Of a stretch of DNA of 8,390 nucleotides, positions 65-8,039 are shown piece after piece. The DNA is from an uncultured Muribaculaceae bacterium (GTDB lineage: Bacteria > Bacillota_I > Bacilli_A > RF39 > UBA660). Below the pieces are notes generated by a model, which was not told the DNA's origin, made no database searches, and worked only from the letters and a program-made list of their open reading frames with translations. Positions within the stretch are counted from its first letter, which is position 1, and the number at the start of each line of letters is the position of its first letter. Made by a program: the position numbers and the translations under genes. The stretch spans positions 1-8,390 of the forward strand of contig CAYUEQ010000042.1 of assembly GCA_964443805.1 (NCBI GenBank), in the 5' to 3' direction.

Positions 65-2083
65 ATGAAAATAAAAATTAAAACATTATATCAAAATATC
101 GTTAAACAAATGATTTCTTTTGTAAGTACAAATAGATTATTTATTTTTTTTGTAATTTCTTCTCTTATTAGTTGTATGTTTTTAAGAGAATATACTATTG
201 GAAATCCATTTGATATAAAACCTTTTATAGTTGATTTAGCTATGATTCTTATAATAGGATCGTTTGGTTATTTAATTAAAGGGAAGAATCAATTTTATTA
301 TTTTTTTAGTTGGTCTATTGTAATAGCATTATTAAATATAATTAATTCAGTTTATTTTGTTTTTTATCAATCATTTACATCTTTTGGTTTATTAGAAACA
401 GTTGGTCAATTAAATACAGTTGGTGGATCAGTAGCAGAGAAATTGGAAACCATTCAATTTATTTATCTGTTGGCACCATTTTTACTTTATTATTTAAATT
501 ATAGTTTAAGTAAATGGAATTATTATAATCTACTTGAAAAGGTAGAAAAAGGAAAGAGAATGTTTGTATCAACTATATTAGTAGCATCTGTTTTAGTTGC
601 TATAACACTAGTTACAATGAAACCTCAAGACTATAGTCGTTTGACTAAACAGTGGGATAGATATTATTTAGTAGAACGTTTTGGTATTATTATGTATCAA
701 TTAAATGATTTAGTCCAAACAGTAACTCCTAGATTTAATTCTTTATTTGGTTATGAAGAAGCTGCAGAAGAATACAGAGTATTCTTTGAAGAAAAAGATC
801 AAGAAATAATAAAAAACAATAAATATACAAATAAATTTAAAGGCTATAATATTATTTTTGTTCATATGGAAAGTATTCAAACCTTTTTACTTGATTTAAG
901 TTTTAATGAAAAAGAAGTAATGCCTAATCTAAATAATATTATAGATAATGGGGTGTTTTTTAATAACTTCCATTCTCAAATAAGTATAGGTACCAGTTCA
1001 GACACTGAATTCACTTTATTAACATCCCTAATGCCTGCTCAATCAGGAACAGTCTTTGTTACTTATAGTGATCGTGAATACGTATCTATTCCTTCTTTAT
1101 TAACAGACAAAGGATACTATACATTTAGTACTCATGGTAATAAAGCAAATATGTGGAATAGAAATAATATGCATTATAACTTAGGTTACCAAGATATGTA
1201 CTTTGAACCAGAATTTGAATTAGATGAAGTAGTTAATTTAGGAATAACTGATAAGTCTTATTTTAGACAGTTAGTTCCTAAACTAGAAAAAATAGAAGAA
1301 GAACATGATTCATATATGGGAACTATTATTACATTATCAAATCATTCACCATTTTATAAAGGTGCTGAATTAACAGACTATGATTTAACTTATACAATAA
1401 CTTCAGATGAATTAGGAATGCCATTAGAAGAACCGATTATAAATCCATATTTAGAAGATACTAAATTAGGAGAATATATTAAAAGTTCTCACTATGCAGA
1501 TGAGGCATTAGGAGAATTTATAGAGATGATTAAAAATTCTGATAAGTTTGATAAAACACTATTTGTATTCTATGGAGATCATGATGCGAAGCTATCTCGT
1601 TCTGAATATAGACATTTTTATAACTATGATCCACAGACAAAGACATCAAAACATAAAGATGATATAGACTACGTTAATTACGACTACTATGCTCATGAAC
1701 TTAACAGAAGTGTACCTTTAGTCCTATGGACTAAGAACTCTTCTATAAAGGGTGAATTTAGCTATCCTATGGGTATGATAGATATAATGCCTACTATAGG
1801 TAATATGATAGATATAAGAAATAGATATAGTTTAGGAAATGATATATTTAATGTTAAAAATGATAATATAGTTGTATTCCCAAATGGAAACTTTCTAACT
1901 AGTAAAGTTTACTATAATAATTCTAAAGAAGAATATATTCCATTTACAACTGAACCAATAGATAAAAACTATATAACAAACATAAAAGAATATACAGATA
2001 AAAGATTAAAAATATCTAATGACATTATTGTTCATGATTTAATTAGAAAAGAAAGAGAAATATTAGAAGGAGTTATAAATTAA
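65..2083 (+). CDS. ltaS: LTA synthase family protein (polytopic N-terminus plus extracellular sulfatase/alkaline-phosphatase-superfamily domain)
   Basis: 672-aa uninterrupted ORF. The first ~190 aa form several hydrophobic segments. Then come LtaS/sulfatase-type motifs: FVHMESIQTF, GTSSDTEFTLLTSLMP (Thr nucleophile context), STHGN and FYGDHD (metal-binding). An AAGGGA Shine-Dalgarno-like sequence precedes the ATG. Confidence 0.88.
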   Translation: MKIKIKTLYQNIVKQMISFVSTNRLFIFFVISSLISCMFLREYTIGNPFDIKPFIVDLAMILIIGSFGYLIKGKNQFYYFFSWSIVIALLNIINSVYFVFYQSFTSFGLLETVGQLNTVGGSVAEKLETIQFIYLLAPFLLYYLNYSLSKWNYYNLLEKVEKGKRMFVSTILVASVLVAITLVTMKPQDYSRLTKQWDRYYLVERFGIIMYQLNDLVQTVTPRFNSLFGYEEAAEEYRVFFEEKDQEIIKNNKYTNKFKGYNIIFVHMESIQTFLLDLSFNEKEVMPNLNNIIDNGVFFNNFHSQISIGTSSDTEFTLLTSLMPAQSGTVFVTYSDREYVSIPSLLTDKGYYTFSTHGNKANMWNRNNMHYNLGYQDMYFEPEFELDEVVNLGITDKSYFRQLVPKLEKIEEEHDSYMGTIITLSNHSPFYKGAELTDYDLTYTITSDELGMPLEEPIINPYLEDTKLGEYIKSSHYADEALGEFIEMIKNSDKFDKTLFVFYGDHDAKLSRSEYRHFYNYDPQTKTSKHKDDIDYVNYDYYAHELNRSVPLVLWTKNSSIKGEFSYPMGMIDIMPTIGNMIDIRNRYSLGNDIFNVKNDNIVVFPNGNFLTSKVYYNNSKEEYIPFTTEPIDKNYITNIKEYTDKRLKISNDIIVHDLIRKEREILEGVIN

Positions 2084-2864: not shown

Positions 2865-2878
2865 AGTTGATATTTAAG

Positions 2879-2908
2879 AGATGATTTATAATAAATTATC
2901 TTTTTTTT
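2879..2908 (+). terminator. Rho-independent terminator after tRNA-Lys
   Basis: AGATGATTTA (2879-2888) pairs with TAAATTATCT (2892-2901): 10 bp with one G-U, loop TAA, followed by a T7 run (2902-2908). Confidence 0.7.
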
Positions 2909-2919
2909 GTATCGAAATA

Positions 2920-2948
2920 TAGCAGTTTTTGGAAATTGATGATATAAT
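2920..2948 (+). promoter_or_regulatory. Candidate promoter of the PHP-ATPase operon (extended -10 TGATATAAT)
   Basis: TGATATAAT at 2940-2948. There is a weak -35-position hexamer TAGCAG at 2920-2925 (17-nt spacer). It lies 65 nt upstream of the ATG at 3013. Confidence 0.4.
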
Positions 2949-2962
2949 TAAGACAGATTGAG

Positions 2963-2994
2963 CAGTATTAAATCTTATTTTAATGCTGTTTTTT
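2963..2994 (+). terminator. Terminator-like hairpin plus T-tract in the 5' leader of the PHP-ATPase gene (possible attenuator)
   Basis: CAGTATTAAA (2963-2972) pairs with TTTAATGCTG (2979-2988): 10 bp with one G-U, 6-nt loop TCTTAT, then TTTTTT (2989-2994). It sits between the candidate -10 and the GGAGG RBS at 3001-3005. Confidence 0.45.
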
Positions 2995-3012
2995 ATAATA
3001 GGAGGTTTTTAA

Positions 3013-5508
3013 ATGAATAATGATAAAAATGATATTAATAATGTTTTGAAAAAAATATCTATTTGGAATAAATGGGATTTACACATACATACCCCAGTGA
3101 CAAATAATATGGTACAAAATGATTATAAAAATCCTAATTTGTTTTCCCCATCAGAATTTGTAACTAAAATGTATGCTAACGATATTAAGCTTGGCGTTAT
3201 CACTGACCACAATGTATTTGATTCGAATCAATTTAAACTTTTAATAACGGAAATTGAAGAAAGAAATAGAAAAGAAAATAAATTTCTTACATTATTGCCT
3301 GGAGTAGAATTAAACGTGAGTTTTCCCAATGAACAAGAGGATTCAATCCATTTTATACTTATATTTGATGATAAGGAAGATTTAAATAAAATTGAAAAAG
3401 CGATTGAAGATTTAAACTCTAAGTCAGGTTTTACAAAAAACAATCCAAAAGATGCAAGTATAGAACAAATAACCGAAGCTTTTTGTAAATTTAATTATAT
3501 AGTTAGTATACATTTAGGCAAATCATCAAACAGTCCAAAAGATGATAATTACGAGGAATTTTTAAAATTATATGTAGGAGGTTACATTGATGTATGTGAA
3601 AATAATCCTGGTAACAAAATTAAAAATAAGGTCTATTTAGAAAATAAAGTTCAAGAATTAACTGGCGACAGAAAAGACTCTCTATTTATAGTAGGAAGTG
3701 ATAATCACGATATAAGTAATTATCCAATGTGCGAAAATAATCCTACCCCACCTAAAATCACTTTTTATAAAGCGATTCCATCTTTTGAAGGTTTAAAAAT
3801 GGTTATTACAGAATATTCCAGAATATATAACAGTGATAGTAATTCATTACCAGATTATATAAATTCAACTAACGATATCACTAAAATTGAAGCTTTAAGA
3901 ATAGAAGGAACTGGATTCAATAATACTGATATATATTTTGGTAGAGAATTAAATTCGATTATAGGAGCTCGAACAAGTGGTAAAAGTTTGTTAATTAACA
4001 TATTAAAATATGCTTTATCAAATGCCTATGATGAGAGTAAATATGAAAACTATATATCAAATCTAAGAGTTAAAATTAAAACATTTGACGATAAAATTTT
4101 TAAAGACAATAGCTCTGTTCAAATAGAAGTTTTTGACCAAAATAGATTAATGGAAGAATTTGATAAATCAAAAAATAAAACAGATTTTTTTAAGGATACC
4201 TATATTTCTAAGACATTCGATGATTTGACAATACAGCAAAAGATTATTAAAGATTCGTTTGAAACTGAGATATCACAAGAGACAGATTTTTTAAACAAAC
4301 TGGAGCAATTAAAAATTTCCATTGATTCATTTAAACTTCCCAATGTTTATTTAAAAAGCTATATAAATTTGGGTAAAAATACCGATGATATGTCAAAGTT
4401 TTATTTAAAAGTTATTGAAACAAAGAAATTCGAAAATATTTTAACCAATTATGAAGAAAAAGAAATTTATTTAAAGACTTCCATTGATTCACTAAACACT
4501 ATAATTGAAAATGATAAATATGAATTTATAAGTAATGAAACTTCGCTTATATTAAAAAAATTGATAGAAGAATTTGAAGAAAAATTAGAAAATGTAGAAA
4601 AAAAATTGAAGAGTATAAAAGCGATTAAATTACTTAATATAACTCAATACAAACCATTTGAAGTGGATGAAAAATTCTACGATTCTCATAAAAGTTTTCT
4701 AAAAAATGTTGGTTCGATTGCTAAAATTAGAGCTAAATTAAAAAAAATCGAAAATTCTTCAACATTGTTTAAGAATAGAAAATTTAAAGTGAATAATGAA
4801 GAAAAATATGAAAAAACTAAATTAGTGCAAGAATTTACTTTTATTTGTTCCATAGATTATGATGTTAATTTTTTAACTAAAGATGCTGACCCAAAACATA
4901 TTGTAGAAAAATGTTTCTATGCCGATGATATAAAGGACGGTTGGATAGATTTAGTAAAAAAAGTATTCTTGAAAAAACTAAAAACTGAAAGTTTATTTAA
5001 AAATAGTAATACTGTGGATTCTATAGTTCAAGAAATATTAAAAGAGATACCTAAACCATATAAAACCATTGTTGATTCTAAAGGTATAGACATCAACAAC
5101 ACCTCTCCAGGTAATAGAGCATCCATACTAATAACAGTAATTTTAGAAAATCAAGAAAATAAAATATTGATTATAGACCAACCAGAAGATAATTTAGATA
5201 GTAAGTTTATCTATAATGAAATTGTCTCGAGACTTAAAACCTTAAAAACCACAAGACAAATATTTTTGGTTACTCATAATGCTAATATTGTAGTTAATTC
5301 TGATAGTGAAAATGTAATTTGTTGTAAAAATATTAATAATAAGATATCTTATGAGTATGGTGCTATTGAGTATTCAAAAAAAATATTTGAAAATTATAAT
5401 ATGAAAGAATTTATTTTGGATAATTTGGAAGGAACCGAAAAAGCATTTAAGACAAGAAGTGAGAAATACTTTTTGAAAGGAGTTGAATTAAATGATAATC
5501 ACAATTGA
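3013..5508 (+). CDS. PHP-domain phosphoesterase fused to a split ABC/SMC-like ATPase with a long coiled-coil-like insert (candidate single-protein defence nuclease-ATPase)
   Basis: 831-aa ORF; GGAGG lies 7 nt before the ATG. PHP motifs: DLHIHT (H24, H26; nt 3082-3090), ITDHN (D65-H66), PGVELN, IHFI, SIHLG, GSDNHD (D230, H232). ATPase motifs: Walker A GARTSGKS (aa 318-325, nt 3964-3987), signature-like TSPGNRAS (aa 697-704), Walker B ILIIDQPEDNLD (aa 718-729, nt 5164-5199), H-loop LVTHNAN (H755). Between Walker A and the signature motif lie ~370 aa of K/E/I/L/N-rich, heptad-like sequence. Confidence 0.88.
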   Translation: MNNDKNDINNVLKKISIWNKWDLHIHTPVTNNMVQNDYKNPNLFSPSEFVTKMYANDIKLGVITDHNVFDSNQFKLLITEIEERNRKENKFLTLLPGVELNVSFPNEQEDSIHFILIFDDKEDLNKIEKAIEDLNSKSGFTKNNPKDASIEQITEAFCKFNYIVSIHLGKSSNSPKDDNYEEFLKLYVGGYIDVCENNPGNKIKNKVYLENKVQELTGDRKDSLFIVGSDNHDISNYPMCENNPTPPKITFYKAIPSFEGLKMVITEYSRIYNSDSNSLPDYINSTNDITKIEALRIEGTGFNNTDIYFGRELNSIIGARTSGKSLLINILKYALSNAYDESKYENYISNLRVKIKTFDDKIFKDNSSVQIEVFDQNRLMEEFDKSKNKTDFFKDTYISKTFDDLTIQQKIIKDSFETEISQETDFLNKLEQLKISIDSFKLPNVYLKSYINLGKNTDDMSKFYLKVIETKKFENILTNYEEKEIYLKTSIDSLNTIIENDKYEFISNETSLILKKLIEEFEEKLENVEKKLKSIKAIKLLNITQYKPFEVDEKFYDSHKSFLKNVGSIAKIRAKLKKIENSSTLFKNRKFKVNNEEKYEKTKLVQEFTFICSIDYDVNFLTKDADPKHIVEKCFYADDIKDGWIDLVKKVFLKKLKTESLFKNSNTVDSIVQEILKEIPKPYKTIVDSKGIDINNTSPGNRASILITVILENQENKILIIDQPEDNLDSKFIYNEIVSRLKTLKTTRQIFLVTHNANIVVNSDSENVICCKNINNKISYEYGAIEYSKKIFENYNMKEFILDNLEGTEKAFKTRSEKYFLKGVELNDNHN

Positions 5509-5737
5509 CAATAATAAAATTGTCATTCCCAACTACGGAGAATTTAATGAAGATGGTAGCGACTTTACAGATAAAAAACTTTTAGAAATACTTGATAAAA
5601 TAAAAAATAAGGAAACAATTACAGTAGACCCAAAACTAGTTGATGATGATAGAAAAAAATGCGAGTTAATTAAAGAAATCTTAGAAACTTATATAGTGAA
5701 TTATTTTGAAGATGATAGTAACGATAACGTAAAATAA
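5492..5737 (+). CDS. Small acidic hypothetical protein, translationally coupled to the PHP-ATPase gene
   Basis: 81-aa ORF. Its ATG at 5492 overlaps the last 17 nt of the upstream ORF. AAAGGAG at 5476-5482 lies 9 nt upstream. By my count about 20 of 81 residues are D/E, including the tail EDDSNDN. A terminator follows immediately. Confidence 0.62.
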   Translation: MIITIDNNKIVIPNYGEFNEDGSDFTDKKLLEILDKIKNKETITVDPKLVDDDRKKCELIKEILETYIVNYFEDDSNDNVK

Positions 5738-5769
5738 AGAAACATCAAATTTCAGATATTTCTTTTTTA
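5737..5769 (+). terminator. Rho-independent terminator of the PHP-ATPase/81-aa operon
   Basis: AAAGAAACATC (5737-5747) pairs with GATATTTCTTT (5756-5766) with one C/A mismatch, loop AAATTTCA. The 3' arm runs into a T-tract ending at 5769. Confidence 0.6.
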
Positions 5770-5960
5770 TTAAATATATTGGTAACTTTCTTATTCATTT
5801 ATGATTTATGTAAAAAAAAATTAAGTCTATAGTTGAGCAATAACTTGTCTTAAATGTTTACTAATGATTGATGATTATCAAACTATTATATTTGTTTTAA
5901 TAATATATGATGTGATAAGATATAATATATATATTTTAAAATGAAAGGAGGAACGCTTGT

Positions 5961-6161
5961 ATGGGTCAAGCTAAAAGACAATTAGCGGAACAGGAGCAAA
6001 AGCGAATCAATAAATTAGAAGGTTATAGAAAACATCTTCATAATGAAAGCACATATGTTATGGACTGCCCTTATTGTTGTAATGCGCTTAGCAAATATGA
6101 TATGCAAAAAGATGATTGTCTTCATTGTGGTTATCCACTTAATTTCAGCGATGAAGACTAA
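5961..6161 (+). CDS. Small zinc-ribbon protein (CxxC...CxxC), function unknown
   Basis: 66-aa ORF. AAAGGAGGA at 5944-5952 lies 8 nt before the ATG. It has a basic, helical-looking N-terminus (QAKRQLAEQEQKRINKLEGYRKHL), then CPYC (aa 36-39) and CLHC (aa 53-56). The ORF is visibly richer in G+C than its surroundings. Confidence 0.62.
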   Translation: MGQAKRQLAEQEQKRINKLEGYRKHLHNESTYVMDCPYCCNALSKYDMQKDDCLHCGYPLNFSDED

Positions 6162-6310
6162 ATCACATTCTTATACAGACAGAAGAACCATTCTGTGTGA
6201 TGGACGATAGTAGAGTTGTACAAGGAGGCATGATTATGAAGAGTAAGTTAAGACAAGAAGATTATAAACAATTATAGTAAAATAATAAGTAGTAATATTT
6301 GCTTGTAAAC

Positions 6311-6356
6311 ACTCTTAATCAGTGGGTCCACGGTTCAAGCCCGTGTGAGGATACCA
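6311..6356 (+). repeat. attR-like partial tRNA-Lys copy (3' 46 nt; anticodon loop through CCA; non-functional fragment)
   Basis: Matches 2819-2864 (35 nt identical, then 8 of 11). It lacks the 5' acceptor strand, the D arm and the 5' anticodon stem, and its acceptor 3' strand is mutated (TGAGGAT versus CGGGGAC). Confidence 0.85.
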
Positions 6357-6367
6357 ATTATTTGATT

Positions 6368-7354
6368 TTAGAAGTTATTACTTAGAACTTTTTTATTTAT
6401 TGACCTAATTTTATTATTTTTAAGTTTATCTTTAATTTTTTTTTGTATACATTTATATTTACTTTCGTCAAATATTTGAGCAGTAAATATTAATCCTAAT
6501 AAACTTTGTAATTCTTTTTCATTATAGTCTTCTTGTTTTAATTTTTTTGCTATCTTGTATTTAATTTTATTGGGTATAACTAATTTTTTGTTTTTTGATA
6601 TTATACATCCAGTTATTTTCTTAAAGTCGTTCGTATAATAACTTTTTGTTTTACTCATATTTATGATATGGCAATGTCTTATTACTACACTATTTATTTG
6701 TGATATTAAAAACTTTGGTATAGGAATATCACTTGATATTGTAATATCATCAACATATATTGATATTATACAATTATTATTTTTAGCAAGAAGTTCTATT
6801 TCTTCAAACATATCTATATTTGCTAAATATGACATTATGCTACTTATAGGTGAGCCTGTAGGTAAATGGTTTAATGATTTTATATTCATATCTGTAATAA
6901 AATCATTAATTTCATTAGTTGTTATTTGCTTTAATGAAACAGTAGATAAGTCTGTTAATATTTTAGCAATATCAGAATTAACTTTTAACTTTTGTTTATA
7001 AAAGTTATAAATCATTTCTCTATGAGTATTTGGAAAAAATTTTGACATATCTATTTTTAAAAAATATTTAGAATTTATATGATATAGAGCATTATCAATA
7101 TATGATTTTCCAGGTACACCAGAAAACACATTATCCTGATAATCTAATTCACAAAGATAGTTTTTTATTTTTCTTTGAATTAATTTGATATCAACATTTG
7201 GGTTTTCTATCAACCTTTTTTTTCTATTTTTTTTATCTATAAATGGTCTGTATTTTACATTGTAACTATTAAAATTTTTGACATTATAATTTAGCAAGGT
7301 CTTTAAATCCCTTTTTCTTTTGACATTATAAAGTCTACATTTCTCATATTTCAT
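6368..7354 (-). CDS. Retron-type reverse transcriptase
   Basis: 328-aa ORF; GAGGT lies 7 nt before the ATG. RT motifs in order: RLIENPNVDIKLIQRKI (motifs 1/2), retron-typical NALYH (NAxxH, nt 7079-7093), FLKIDMSKFFPN (motif A), LPTGSPISSIMSYL (motif B), IYVDDITIS (YVDD, nt 6746-6757), INMSKTK (motif D), and retron-typical KKITGCIIS (xTG, nt 6608-6616). By eye it is collinear with Ec86 RT (NATPH / LNIDLEDFF / LPQGAPSSP / YADD / KVTGLVIS). Confidence 0.88.
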   Translation of the reverse strand: MKYEKCRLYNVKRKRDLKTLLNYNVKNFNSYNVKYRPFIDKKNRKKRLIENPNVDIKLIQRKIKNYLCELDYQDNVFSGVPGKSYIDNALYHINSKYFLKIDMSKFFPNTHREMIYNFYKQKLKVNSDIAKILTDLSTVSLKQITTNEINDFITDMNIKSLNHLPTGSPISSIMSYLANIDMFEEIELLAKNNNCIISIYVDDITISSDIPIPKFLISQINSVVIRHCHIINMSKTKSYYTNDFKKITGCIISKNKKLVIPNKIKYKIAKKLKQEDYNEKELQSLLGLIFTAQIFDESKYKCIQKKIKDKLKNNKIRSINKKVLSNNF

Positions 7355-7370
7355 ATCATTACCTCACAAA

Positions 7371-7424
7371 ACAATTACTTTTGTAAAAATATCAATTTGA
7401 TAATATACTTACAAAAATAATTGT
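7371..7424 (-). other. 54-nt imperfect hairpin filling the gap between the 67-aa ORF and the RT gene
   Basis: ACAATTACTTTTGTAA (7371-7386) is the reverse complement of TTACAAAAATAATTGT (7409-7424) with one mismatch. Inside the loop is a nested 5-bp stem TATCA/TGATA (7390-7394 with 7398-7402). On the minus strand only UUUGUG follows the stem. Confidence 0.55.
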
Positions 7425-7427
7425 TAA

Positions 7428-7631
7428 TTATTTAGTATGTTTTTTTATTCTCTTAGTAATTTGTTTGAATACTTGGTACCCGAAACAAACAAATACTAAG
7501 ATTTTAACGTTTAATTTTACATTAAAGTCTAGTGAAAAATCAAAACCGATACTAGCATTAAGTGTCAGTCCTAAAGATAAAGTTATCAGATATTTATAAT
7601 CGTGTATAAATTCTTTTAATTTGGATACCAT
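7428..7631 (-). CDS. Small hydrophobic protein (one or two membrane segments, basic C-terminal tail), first gene of the RT operon
   Basis: 67-aa ORF. A strong AAGGAGG lies 9 nt upstream of the ATG. Hydrophobic stretches are YLITLSLGLTLNASIGF (aa 14-30) and KILVFVCFGYQVF (aa 42-55). The tail is KQITKRIKKHTK. It is on the same strand as the RT and 73 nt upstream of it. Confidence 0.58.
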   Translation of the reverse strand: MVSKLKEFIHDYKYLITLSLGLTLNASIGFDFSLDFNVKLNVKILVFVCFGYQVFKQITKRIKKHTK

Positions 7632-7640
7632 TATGATATA

Positions 7641-7962
7641 CCTCCTTCTTTGTAATTTTGGACACTTTAGCTTTATTCCGCGGATAAAACCTAGTGCGCC
7701 CCATATTCCAAATCACAGGAGATACTATGCTAGACACTTAATATATAATTAACAATTTCCTGCCCCATACTTAATTGATATAGAGCTTGATTATACTTTT
7801 TCAATAAACAGTATAACTTACATCATTATTAATTATAATAATATAGTATGTATTGGTTAGAAAACTACTGCCGTCAAAAAGTATTGCGAAGATATAATCT
7901 TCTCGCTAATAAATTAGCCATACATGGAGCTTTGGCATAATGCCTTGAGCACCTTTAGAACT
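7641..7962 (-). ncRNA. Candidate structured non-coding leader of the RT operon (possible retron msr-msd-like ncRNA; boundaries uncertain)
   Basis: ~320 nt with no plausible ORF on either strand and visibly higher G+C than its surroundings (about 44% by my count over 7661-7730). A promoter-like element lies just upstream on the minus strand. Local hairpins: GGCA-taa-TGCC (7934-7944), GCTAA-taaa-TTAGC (7905-7918), GCGAAGAT-ata-ATCTT(ct)CGC (7886-7906), and an 11-bp bulged stem 7742-7752 with 7771-7782. I could not identify a convincing a1/a2 pairing. Confidence 0.35.
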
Positions 7963-7968
7963 AGTAAA

Positions 7969-7997
7969 ATCATATCATAAAAATTTATTTTCGACAA
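7969..7997 (-). promoter_or_regulatory. Candidate sigma-A-type promoter for the ncRNA/67-aa/RT transcription unit
   Basis: Read on the minus strand: -35 TTGTCG (7997-7992), 17-nt spacer, TGa-extended -10 TATGAT (7974-7969). The predicted start is near 7962. An alternative internal perfect TATAAT lies at 7795-7790 (minus strand). Confidence 0.4.
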
Positions 7998-8003
7998 ATA
8001 TTT

Positions 8004-8039
8004 AAAAAAGGTTACTAAACAATATTAGTTACCTTTTTT
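8004..8039. terminator. Bidirectional intrinsic terminator (A-tract, stem-loop, T-tract)
   Basis: AAAAAA (8004-8009). GGTTACTAA (8010-8018) pairs with TTAGTTACC (8025-8033) at 8 of 9 positions, loop ACAATA. TTTTTT follows (8034-8039). It insulates the RT module from the rightmost gene. Confidence 0.6.

Follow-up and report, generated by a model that had tools for sequence, protein, structure and literature searches.

A probable two-gene type VI retron without an HTH gene in gut Firmicutes

Introduction

Type VI retrons are anti-phage operons in which a noncoding RNA (ncRNA), a small protein (SP) gene and a reverse transcriptase (RT) gene follow one another, an order already described by Mestre 2020 (PMC7736814). 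In the same classification, type VI RTs lie in clade 3, sister to types IV and V, and the type is defined by a Cro/C1-type helix-turn-helix (HTH) gene (cluster 2_1; PADLOC HTH_VI) situated just upstream of the RT gene or overlapping it (Mestre 2020, PMC7736814). The named type VI SP clusters are 2075, 2760, 3272 and 3897. Here we analyze a related locus in an 8,390-bp stretch of DNA from an uncultured gut bacterium (GenBank assembly GCA_964443805.1, contig CAYUEQ010000042.1), which we call the window. It carries a structured leader, an SP gene and a retron RT gene, and it lacks the HTH gene.

Two mechanistic studies have shown how HTH-bearing type VI operons work. In Retron-Vpa2 of Vibrio parahaemolyticus, whose operon runs ncRNA, SP, HTH and RT, the msr-msd is joined with the SP coding sequence in a single 'hybrid RNA', and the SP is a toxin whose ribosome binding site (RBS), like the start codon, is sequestered (Zhang et al., bioRxiv 10.1101/2025.10.22.683967). 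Its multicopy single-stranded DNA (msDNA), undetectable at baseline, builds up after triggering and is required for SP translation; conserved 7-nt direct repeats, found in the msd and in the riboregulator loop, were proposed as a possible link (10.1101/2025.10.22.683967). Retron-Sen3 has a conserved helix between two inverted repeats, IR1 and IR2, around its SP gene, and its HTH protein is an antitoxin (Garcia-Rodriguez et al., bioRxiv 10.64898/2026.04.27.721009). Of the catalogued type VI entries, about 78% have the HTH gene, those without it were not analyzed, and the 'Large' lineage of that study already includes Bacillota entries (10.64898/2026.04.27.721009). Both studies center on the HTH protein, as a repressor of reverse transcription in Vpa2 and as an antitoxin in Sen3.

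Results

A retron RT assigned to the type VI lineage

An earlier examination of the window, here called the sequence-only reading, listed a promoter, a leader, a 67-amino acid (aa) open reading frame (ORF), a hairpin and a retron-type RT. We recovered all of these in place on the minus strand, which carries every part of the retron; coordinates below are those of the window. The RT gene (6368-7354, minus strand) encodes 328 aa, is preceded by the RBS GTGAGGT at about 7366-7360 and matches Pfam RVT_1 (2e-14). The motifs on which the sequence-only reading based its retron assignment are present as N88-A-L-Y-H92 (NAxxH, which in retron RTs is located between RT2 and RT3), Y200-V-D-D203 and I247-T-G249 (the VTG-type triplet of RT7), and H92, the YVDD box and T248-G249 are invariant in 15 homologues. 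PADLOC model RT_VI gave the best match (1.1e-67, 226 bits; residues 7-299 on model positions 2-275 of 279), with RT_III-A as the runner-up at 113 bits. Retron RT models make up the whole of the best 25 PADLOC matches, and all 12 PDB sequence matches are retron RTs, so that the clade comparison proposed earlier came out in favor of a retron, with no clustering among non-retron RTs.

Relatives of the window RT behave in the same way, scoring 210-223 bits on RT_VI and at most 76 bits on RT_V, and RT_IV does not appear in the best 25 PADLOC matches of the window RT or its relatives. As canonical comparators we used the HTH-bearing loci of Yersinia phage vB_YenM_56.17, Shewanella phage MuM16-1 and an Aeromonas salmonicida plasmid, whose RTs reach 320-346 bits on RT_VI and whose HTH proteins reach 120 bits on HTH_VI. 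The window RT is about 30-33% identical to such HTH-bearing type VI RTs by tblastn. By these profile comparisons we assign it to the type VI retron lineage. An NCBIfam scan of the RT gave scores under every curated cut-off, and routine annotation would therefore yield just 'reverse transcriptase family protein'.

A conserved small protein gene upstream of the RT

Upstream of the RT gene lies the SP gene (7428-7631, minus strand; 67 aa). It is preceded by the RBS GAAGGAGG at 7648-7641, which contains AAGGAGG and confirms the strong RBS described earlier for this ORF. To place the pair among its relatives we collected 269 RT homologues at E<=1e-10, which comprise one sequence at 97% identity, a clade at 54-59% (metagenome-assembled genomes, MAGs, of Bacilli/'Tenericutes') and more distant clades at 35-50% (Clostridia, Christensenellaceae). 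A scan of genome contigs with the single RT as query confirmed no locus; a profile scan succeeded. The resulting set comprises about 55 loci from MAGs of Bacilli and Clostridia, with RTs 35-97% identical to that of the window.

In essentially all of these loci a 58-90 aa ORF with an AGGAGG-type Shine-Dalgarno sequence (SD) stands directly upstream of the RT gene, locus L040 being the one for which no SP was called. The gap between SP and RT ranges from -17 to about 85 nt in most related loci, and the noncoding leader before the SP is 330-430 nt long. When a divergent SP homologue was taken as the starting point, it again led to an SP-RT pair. The genes downstream of the RT vary by clade and include SIR2, AIPR, PemK-like, metallo-beta-lactamase-fold and restriction-modification neighbors; because they are different in each clade, the conserved unit is the leader, the SP and the RT. 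For the same reason the SIR2, AIPR, PemK-like and metallo-beta-lactamase-fold genes were ruled out as effectors.

Substitutions in the SP gene are of the coding type. Changes at the three codon positions number 757/434/825, synonymous changes make up 23% compared with 17% and 14% in the shifted frames, and indels comprise whole codons. Residues L20, T23, L45, V48, G51 and Y52 are invariant in the homologues. The pairing of mini-ORF and RT, whose conservation the sequence-only reading had proposed to check, is thus a stable feature of the lineage. An overlapping 47-aa ORF with a GTG start (7737-7594) was rejected, as it has no RBS and its frame is lost outside the 97% relative.

The SP itself belongs to what sequence searches indicate is a small, private family. 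An exhaustive HMMER search of 1.84 billion representatives found 12 matches, 10 of them 58-90 aa long; a word-index protein search returned nothing, and comparison with Pfam, PADLOC, PHROGs and NCBIfam gave no match at the thresholds used. A weak match to MASE10 (E 0.065) was dismissed as far below the cut-off. The protein carries a net charge of +7, is amphipathic in the segments at both termini and has hydrophobic stretches near residues 14-24 and 43-50. Its maximum 19-residue Kyte-Doolittle hydropathy is 1.44, under the usual 1.6. Residues 15-42 (ITLSLGLTLNASIGFDFSLDFNVKLNVKILV) show a very strong hydrophobic/polar alternation with a two-residue, beta-type periodicity, as in amphipathic beta strands. 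AlphaFold2 instead modeled a two-helix hairpin, both from the single sequence and from an 11-sequence alignment, with low confidence (predicted local distance difference test 69.6 and 64.5, predicted template modeling score ~0.35), so that for residues 15-42 the beta-type pattern stands against a modeled helix. The '67-aa membrane mini-protein' of the sequence-only reading therefore survives in part: that the SP is hydrophobic is safe, whereas by its hydropathy value, its beta periodicity and the low-confidence model it is not a clear transmembrane protein. Some Clostridia relatives carry SPs in the style of the Yersinia and Shewanella phage proteins, which have a basic N-terminus and a hydrophobic C-helix.

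The HTH gene is missing from the window and from most relatives

The interval between the SP and RT genes, in which a canonical type VI locus would place its HTH gene, measures 73 nt in the window and is occupied by a hairpin. To look for the gene elsewhere, we built a hidden Markov model (HMM) from the three canonical HTH_VI proteins and the corresponding protein of locus L004, and searched every stop-to-stop frame of 40 aa or more in the window and in 58 loci. No frame in the window matched. The HMM recovered its training loci and near-identical relatives (the canonical genes, L004-6, L016 and L021), and beyond these it matched only, in a few loci, unrelated XRE-type genes at a distance of over 2 kb. 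Two small ORFs of the window that might have concealed an HTH, of 81 and 66 aa, were rejected because neither matches this HMM. The claim that the 67-aa protein is the only partner of the RT therefore holds, the Cro/C1 HTH gene being absent here and from most relatives.

Only five of the roughly 55 related Firmicutes loci (L004-6, L016 and L021) have an HTH_VI-like gene. It encodes 79 aa (PADLOC 2.5e-8, 32 bits) and lies about 60 nt upstream of the leader promoter (L004 3065-3304). This order of HTH, ncRNA, SP and RT is a rearranged type VI arrangement of which we found no description in the published type VI studies. At the equivalent position the window has a terminator hairpin and a host gene. 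By these searches, HTH-bearing and HTH-less versions coexist within one RT clade, and most members are without the gene. The HTH-less arrangement persists down to about 35-45% RT identity in many MAGs and on hundreds of contigs; the RT of one relative is indexed in 1140 blocks of the contig collection, and its cluster is listed on 574 contigs.

A structured leader that encloses the SP gene

A consensus scan placed a promoter at 7969-7997 (minus strand), with -35 TTGTCG, a 17-nt spacer and a TG-extended -10 TATGAT. In DNA of 25% GC the scan showed no enrichment over shuffled sequence; the position of the -35 and -10 elements is kept in homologous loci. From this sequence the transcript should start near 7962, and about 330 nt of leader without a credible ORF follow. 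The region 7970-7352 (619 nt) folds with -158.6 kcal/mol (z -7.58). We derived a consensus fold from a 9-sequence alignment of the 54-59% clade with RNAalifold, edited to add the IR1-IR2 helix. Across its 112 pairs, 95.2% of cells are paired, compared with 40-49% when partners are slid; pairs changed on both sides number 25, compared with 3-9 in the slid controls, and 0 of 500 shuffles matched the observed values. A search of the window against Rfam at permissive thresholds found tRNA only and no retron RNA family.

The 5' part of this RNA resembles an msr-msd. An a1-like element, GCTCCATGT (7922-7930, minus strand), complements the first of two direct repeats, G-U pairs included; its core GCYCC (7930-7926) pairs with GGGGC of the repeat, the consensus being GCCCC/GGGGC. 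Comparative data, not the window-only minimum free energy (MFE) fold, support this pairing. A conserved TGG follows at 7920-7918, from its position a candidate for the branching G, from which retron msDNA is primed through a 2'-5' link. Two short msr-like hairpins occupy 7886-7920 (minus strand): SL1 (GCTAA/TTAGC, 7918-7905), which covaries as GCTAA/TTAGC, GTCAA/TTGAC, GCTATA/TATAGC and GTCAG/CTGAC, and SL2 (GAAGAT/ATCTTC, 7902-7888), which is invariant. Next comes a long hairpin, the candidate msd and thus the candidate template for msDNA (7793-7884, minus strand; -19.8 kcal/mol, z -3.0), with a conserved base and a tip of variable sequence and length. No other block of the leader is less conserved, and a long stem is present at this position in every homologue folded separately. 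Direct repeat 1, TATGGGGC (7762-7769, minus strand; 138 nt before the SP start), would close the msr-msd-like domain by pairing with a1. In silico, then, the ncRNA beside the genes has ends of the a1/a2 type, short msr hairpins and a long variable msd hairpin.

The 3' part of the leader is predicted to act on SP translation. Direct repeat 2, again TATGGGGC (7698-7705, minus strand; 74 nt before the SP start), lies in a riboregulator arm, partly in the loop; the window has 2 exact copies of this sequence where 0.04 would be expected. An anti-SD, TATCTCC (7718-7724, minus strand), is invariant in the alignment and pairs with the SP SD, GGAGGTA (7639-7645, minus strand), which is sequestered in the predicted fold: its unpaired probability is 0.00 in the window and at most 0.10 in 6 of 7 clades. 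IR1 (AATTGTTAATTAT, 7745-7757, minus strand) and IR2 (ATAATTAACAATT, 7419-7431, minus strand) are the 5' and 3' arms of a long-range helix around the SP gene, with IR2 sharing nucleotides with both the SP stop codon and the base of the next hairpin. Their helix has 12 bp with 100% of cells paired, and it shows a compensatory A-U to G-C change in L003. Compared with the published hybrid RNAs, the transcript thus has the sequestered SP RBS, the inverted repeats bracketing the SP gene and the short direct repeats.

Between SP and RT, an AU-rich 24-bp hairpin with a U-run (7370-7425, minus strand; 56 nt, -21.2 kcal/mol, z -6.25) carries compensatory changes in homologues, among them G-C to A-U, and is present with a different sequence in distant clades. 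A GC-based terminator scan did not score it. It is terminator-like and probably forms the 3' end of the abundant RNA. IR2 overlaps the first 7-10 nt of this hairpin (7370-7431, minus strand), and once IR1-IR2 has formed, the remaining stem no longer abuts the U-run. IR1-IR2 and the hairpin could thus be an antiterminator/terminator pair that sets the ratio of RT mRNA to hybrid RNA, and a ribosome at the SP stop codon would disturb both the IR2 helix and the hairpin. A possible internal RT promoter at 7427-7400 was rejected, because the -10 falls within the variable loop of the hairpin and lacks conservation.

Further pairing is predicted at the 5' end, where the segment CTAGTTCTAAAG (7953-7964, minus strand) would pair with SP codons at 7576-7565 (CTTTAGGACTGA). 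In the alignment this helix (columns 17-28 with 465-476) has 97% of cells paired and 3 pairs changed on both sides. The same stretch of the leader (7940-7965, minus strand) holds a CCAAAGnnGCTCGAAA-like motif, TTCTAAAGGTGCTCAAGG in the window, which is nearly constant though a1 and the repeats vary by clade, and which recurs at the equivalent position in L007, L010, L013, L048 and L051. It may be a binding site for a protein, perhaps the RT, instead of a pairing partner.

The same RNA plan in distant clades

Leaders of more distant loci cannot be aligned with that of the window, and we therefore compared 35 non-identical loci with shuffled controls by the position and pairing of their elements. 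Because these loci are not phylogenetically independent, the counts are descriptive. G-rich direct repeats of 7 nt or longer, with one copy about 118 to 147 nt and the other about 47 to 84 nt before the SP start, are present in 29 of the 35 (2.8% of shuffles). In 24 of the 35, the direct repeat has an upstream complement followed by TGG within 16 nt (0.1% of shuffles). In 51% of loci, compared with 5.7% of shuffles, the sequence immediately 3' of repeat 1 forms a helix of 9 bp or more with the SP stop codon, and this helix, at the positions of IR1 and IR2, is built from unrelated sequences in different clades.

The repeats differ from clade to clade (TATGGGGC, GAGGGGC, GCGAAGG, TGAAGGG, GCAGGAG, AGGGAG, TTGGGGAG and TGGGAAGTC), and the upstream complements shift with them (GCCCC, CCTTC, CCCTT, CTCCTG and CTCCCT). 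Canonical type VI loci have 7-nt repeats at similar offsets, TGGCGAC at -107 and -47 for the Yersinia phage and two copies of GGGCGAG for the Shewanella phage. The concerted changes of a1 and the repeats are hard to explain without function. The joint change of both repeats and the upstream complement lends comparative support to a repeat-based riboregulator, which the Vpa2 authors had put forward as no more than a hypothesis.

Genomic setting

The window, with a G+C content of 24.9%, begins with an LtaS-like sulfatase-family gene (65-2083, plus strand), followed by a 207-aa gene and tRNA-Lys(CTT) at 2789-2864. The 3' half of this tRNA is repeated at 6311-6357 (plus strand; 47 nt, 94% identical to 2819-2865) as an att scar, which ends 10 nt from the RT stop codon; downstream of the RT are only this scar and the divergent island. 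The scar delimits the 3.5-kb insert on its far side and not the retron. With these features, the defense-island setting beside a tRNA scar that the sequence-only reading had described stands. On the other side of the retron, a hairpin with flanking A- and T-runs (8004-8039, minus strand; -13.1 kcal/mol, z -4.7) terminates the neighboring gene on the convergent side and insulates the retron promoter; it is found only in the window and its 97% relative.

The insert (2865-6357), which has no integrase, looks like separate defense cargo in the same tRNA hotspot. Its gene at 3013-5508 (plus strand) encodes a protein of 831 aa that NCBIfam classes as a TrlF family AAA-like ATPase (368.6 bits, cut-off 350); the N-terminus is PHP-like (HIHTP), and the C-terminus gives Ppl-like PADLOC matches. 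The 81-aa ORF mentioned above (5492-5737, plus strand) overlaps the end of the ATPase gene and has a weak Phage_CI_C match (0.0044). The 66-aa ORF (5961-6161, plus strand), between the ATPase operon and the scar, has two CxxC pairs, is zinc-ribbon-like and weakly matches PADLOC PDC-S64 (E 0.0025).

Related loci show comparable surroundings. The RT of L001/L002 (97% identical) departs from the window RT over its last ~10 codons (window 6368-6400; L001 2220-2300), and the DNA past it has ~12 nt (TGGTATCC.CA) in common with the distal end of the scar before different genes (DUF4238 and others) begin; it therefore appears that the variable region has its recombination junction at, or within, the RT gene's 3' end. 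Neighbors of L003, L007-L014 and L059 include SIR2_2, AIPR, DpnII-type restriction-modification genes and a NACHT ATPase, together with a PemK-like domain protein, integrases, and a serine recombinase with Mob_Pre. These flanks fit defense islands and mobilizable elements of gut Firmicutes.

Discussion

A two-gene retron and how it may work

We consider it likely that this locus belongs to the type VI retron lineage, as a two-gene member without an HTH. The sequence-only reading had seen an unusual gene order and an atypical, possibly undescribed subtype, and neither impression stands: leader, SP and RT is the canonical type VI order of Mestre 2020, Vpa2 and Sen3, and a tiny effector upstream of the RT is a hallmark of the type. 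What sets the locus apart is the gene that it does without. By analogy with Vpa2, we infer msDNA synthesis, a trigger, SP toxicity and a release step, and the SP is presumed to be the toxic effector.

Under this proposal, a single promoter would yield a hybrid RNA of ~600 nt. Its 5' third would form the msr-msd-like domain, in which a1, the two short hairpins and the long variable hairpin are closed by pairing of a1 with repeat 1. The middle would be the riboregulator, with the SP SD locked in a 9-bp helix and repeat 2 displayed in a loop, and the long-range IR1-IR2 helix would bracket the SP gene. The RNA would stop at the terminator-like hairpin and accumulate, while read-through would supply the RT. 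If Vpa2 is a guide to the later steps, the RT would make little stable msDNA in uninfected cells, and phage recombination proteins or proteins that inhibit nucleases would cause msDNA to accumulate. The msDNA, carrying the complement of repeat 1, might then engage repeat 2 and help to open the riboregulator. Translation of the SP would follow, and the cell would be killed or arrested in an abortive infection. With neither an HTH repressor nor an antitoxin encoded, only RNA structure and msDNA turnover would hold the toxin back.

We advance a stronger version of this proposal tentatively, as possible but short of probable. It holds that the locus is a natural minimal retron of one hybrid RNA and an RT, with no protein repressor or antitoxin and with purely RNA-based control of the toxin, in which the joint variation of a1, repeat 1 and repeat 2 would reflect a switch of the toehold kind. 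SP translation would be unlocked when repeat 2 is engaged, whether by the reverse-transcribed copy of repeat 1 or by a1.

Several points weigh against our interpretation. The placement of the RT in type VI comes from HMM discrimination and locus features and not from a tree with a reference set. No sequence similarity was detected between the SP and its counterparts in the Yersinia and Shewanella phages, and the structure model of the SP is of low confidence. The window-only MFE pairs a1 locally and not with repeat 1. When repeat 2 was constrained to be unpaired, the thermodynamic model kept the SD paired in 7 of 7 clades, so that this simple test lends the release step no support; something beyond an 8-nt contact, or a protein, would have to take part. 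Loss of the HTH is toxic in both type VI retrons studied, and a stable HTH-less system therefore needs another restraint; absence of the gene applies to the 8.4-kb window, and an HTH protein could be encoded elsewhere. Finally, we infer msDNA, toxicity, defense and the transcript ends alike.

Alternative explanations

One alternative is a constitutively armed system like Sen3, in which the SP would always be made and be neutralized after translation by the RT, or by an HTH protein or other antitoxin encoded elsewhere, until phage interference with a host nuclease freed the toxin. Sen3 demonstrates that type VI lineages can use such post-translational control through contacts of RT, HTH and SP (10.64898/2026.04.27.721009), and the HTH_VI-like gene just upstream of the leader in L004-6, L016 and L021 means that the HTH can sit outside the SP-RT interval. 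However, neither the 8.4-kb window nor most relatives with 3 kb of flank contain an HTH_VI-like ORF, and the L004 position is taken here by a terminator and a host gene. Strongly conserved sequestration of the SD also favors translational control over constitutive production, and we regard this alternative as unlikely.

Two further explanations would deprive the SP or the whole locus of an effector function. Because IR2 overlaps both the stop codon of the SP and the initial 7-10 nt of the terminator-like hairpin, a terminating ribosome, or IR1-IR2 pairing, would alter whether the U-run directly follows a full stem; the 67-aa ORF might then be mainly a regulatory leader ORF, whose translation through IR2 and the hairpin base controls the terminator and hence the RT, the effector being absent or elsewhere. 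That would be a highly improbable use of a peptide with six invariant residues and whole-codon indels, which keeps a size of 58-90 aa in all clades and whose positional equivalents in Vpa2 and Sen3 are proven toxins. Nor is there another conserved gene beside the RT, the downstream neighbors differing in every clade. A canonical type VI retron that has shed its HTH gene and is decaying without function would be in keeping with a locus that abuts a recombination hotspot at a tRNA scar and with a 97% relative that diverges within the last ~10 RT codons. We give this idea hardly any credence: the RT and SP ORFs are intact with all catalytic motifs present, the HTH-less arrangement is kept across the many MAGs and hundreds of contigs described above, and its RNA helices have been maintained through compensatory change.

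Implications

The reading that we prefer, a type VI retron that dispenses with the HTH gene, bears on how these systems are controlled. A large gut-metagenome lineage that keeps the RNA, the SP and the RT without the HTH suggests that RNA alone can restrain the toxin, and such a lineage is a simpler system in which to ask how reverse-transcribed DNA turns on translation. If the minimal, RNA-controlled retron proposed above is real, the HTH of canonical type VI systems would be an add-on regulator and not part of the core, and the gut-Firmicutes lineage would be the simplest test bed for msDNA-activated translation. Rules for type VI annotation are assumed to require both RT and HTH; if so, HTH-less loci would be labeled only 'reverse transcriptase family protein'.

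Comparison with known systems

Among other retrons, type IV Retron-Eco6 (Ec48) has an RT that also falls in clade 3 of Mestre 2020 and a hydrophobic effector that is presumed to act on membranes. The layouts differ, as the sequence-only reading rightly pointed out: the Ec48 effector is a larger protein with two transmembrane (2-TM) segments encoded downstream of the RT, and its ncRNA lies directly upstream of the RT. The window has neither the 2-TM effector downstream of or overlapping the RT nor the type IV-clade RT that distinguish type IV.

A functional parallel exists outside retrons. In type I toxin-antitoxin mRNAs such as hok/sok, which encode a small hydrophobic toxin, long-range pairing of the 5' and 3' ends and sequestration of the SD block translation. 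The likeness, which is one of function only, is that a small-toxin mRNA is kept untranslatable by these two devices. No antisense RNA is evident here, the proposed activator is a reverse-transcribed DNA, and there is no sequence relationship.

Within type VI, the Sen3/cluster 2075 lineage has the same conserved long-range IR1-IR2 helix around the SP gene, an RBS in the basal stem and an internal long stem-loop with a non-conserved center. Sen3, however, needs an HTH antitoxin that binds SP and RT, whereas the window encodes none, and the SP clusters differ.

Another type VI system for comparison is Retron-Vpa2, where the likeness to the hybrid RNA is by published description and not by sequence. 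Both have the ncRNA first, then the SP gene, with the RT last; both place an msr-msd-like domain and the SP coding sequence on one structured transcript with a sequestered SP RBS; both have short direct repeats next to or in the msd and in the riboregulator loop, and a 3' inverted repeat that folds back onto the 5' domain. Their RTs are matched best by the same PADLOC model, RT_VI. Unlike Vpa2, the window has no HTH between SP and RT and carries a terminator-like hairpin in its place. Its SP is unrelated, with 67 aa and two hydrophobic segments, whereas the Vpa2 SP has 55 aa, a basic N-terminus and one hydrophobic C-terminal helix. The host is one of the Firmicutes, at 25% GC. For the window locus, msDNA, triggers and toxicity are predictions by analogy. 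What it adds to the published work on type VI is a widespread HTH-less lineage of gut Firmicutes with an SP family of its own, and the three-way concerted change of a1, repeat 1 and repeat 2.

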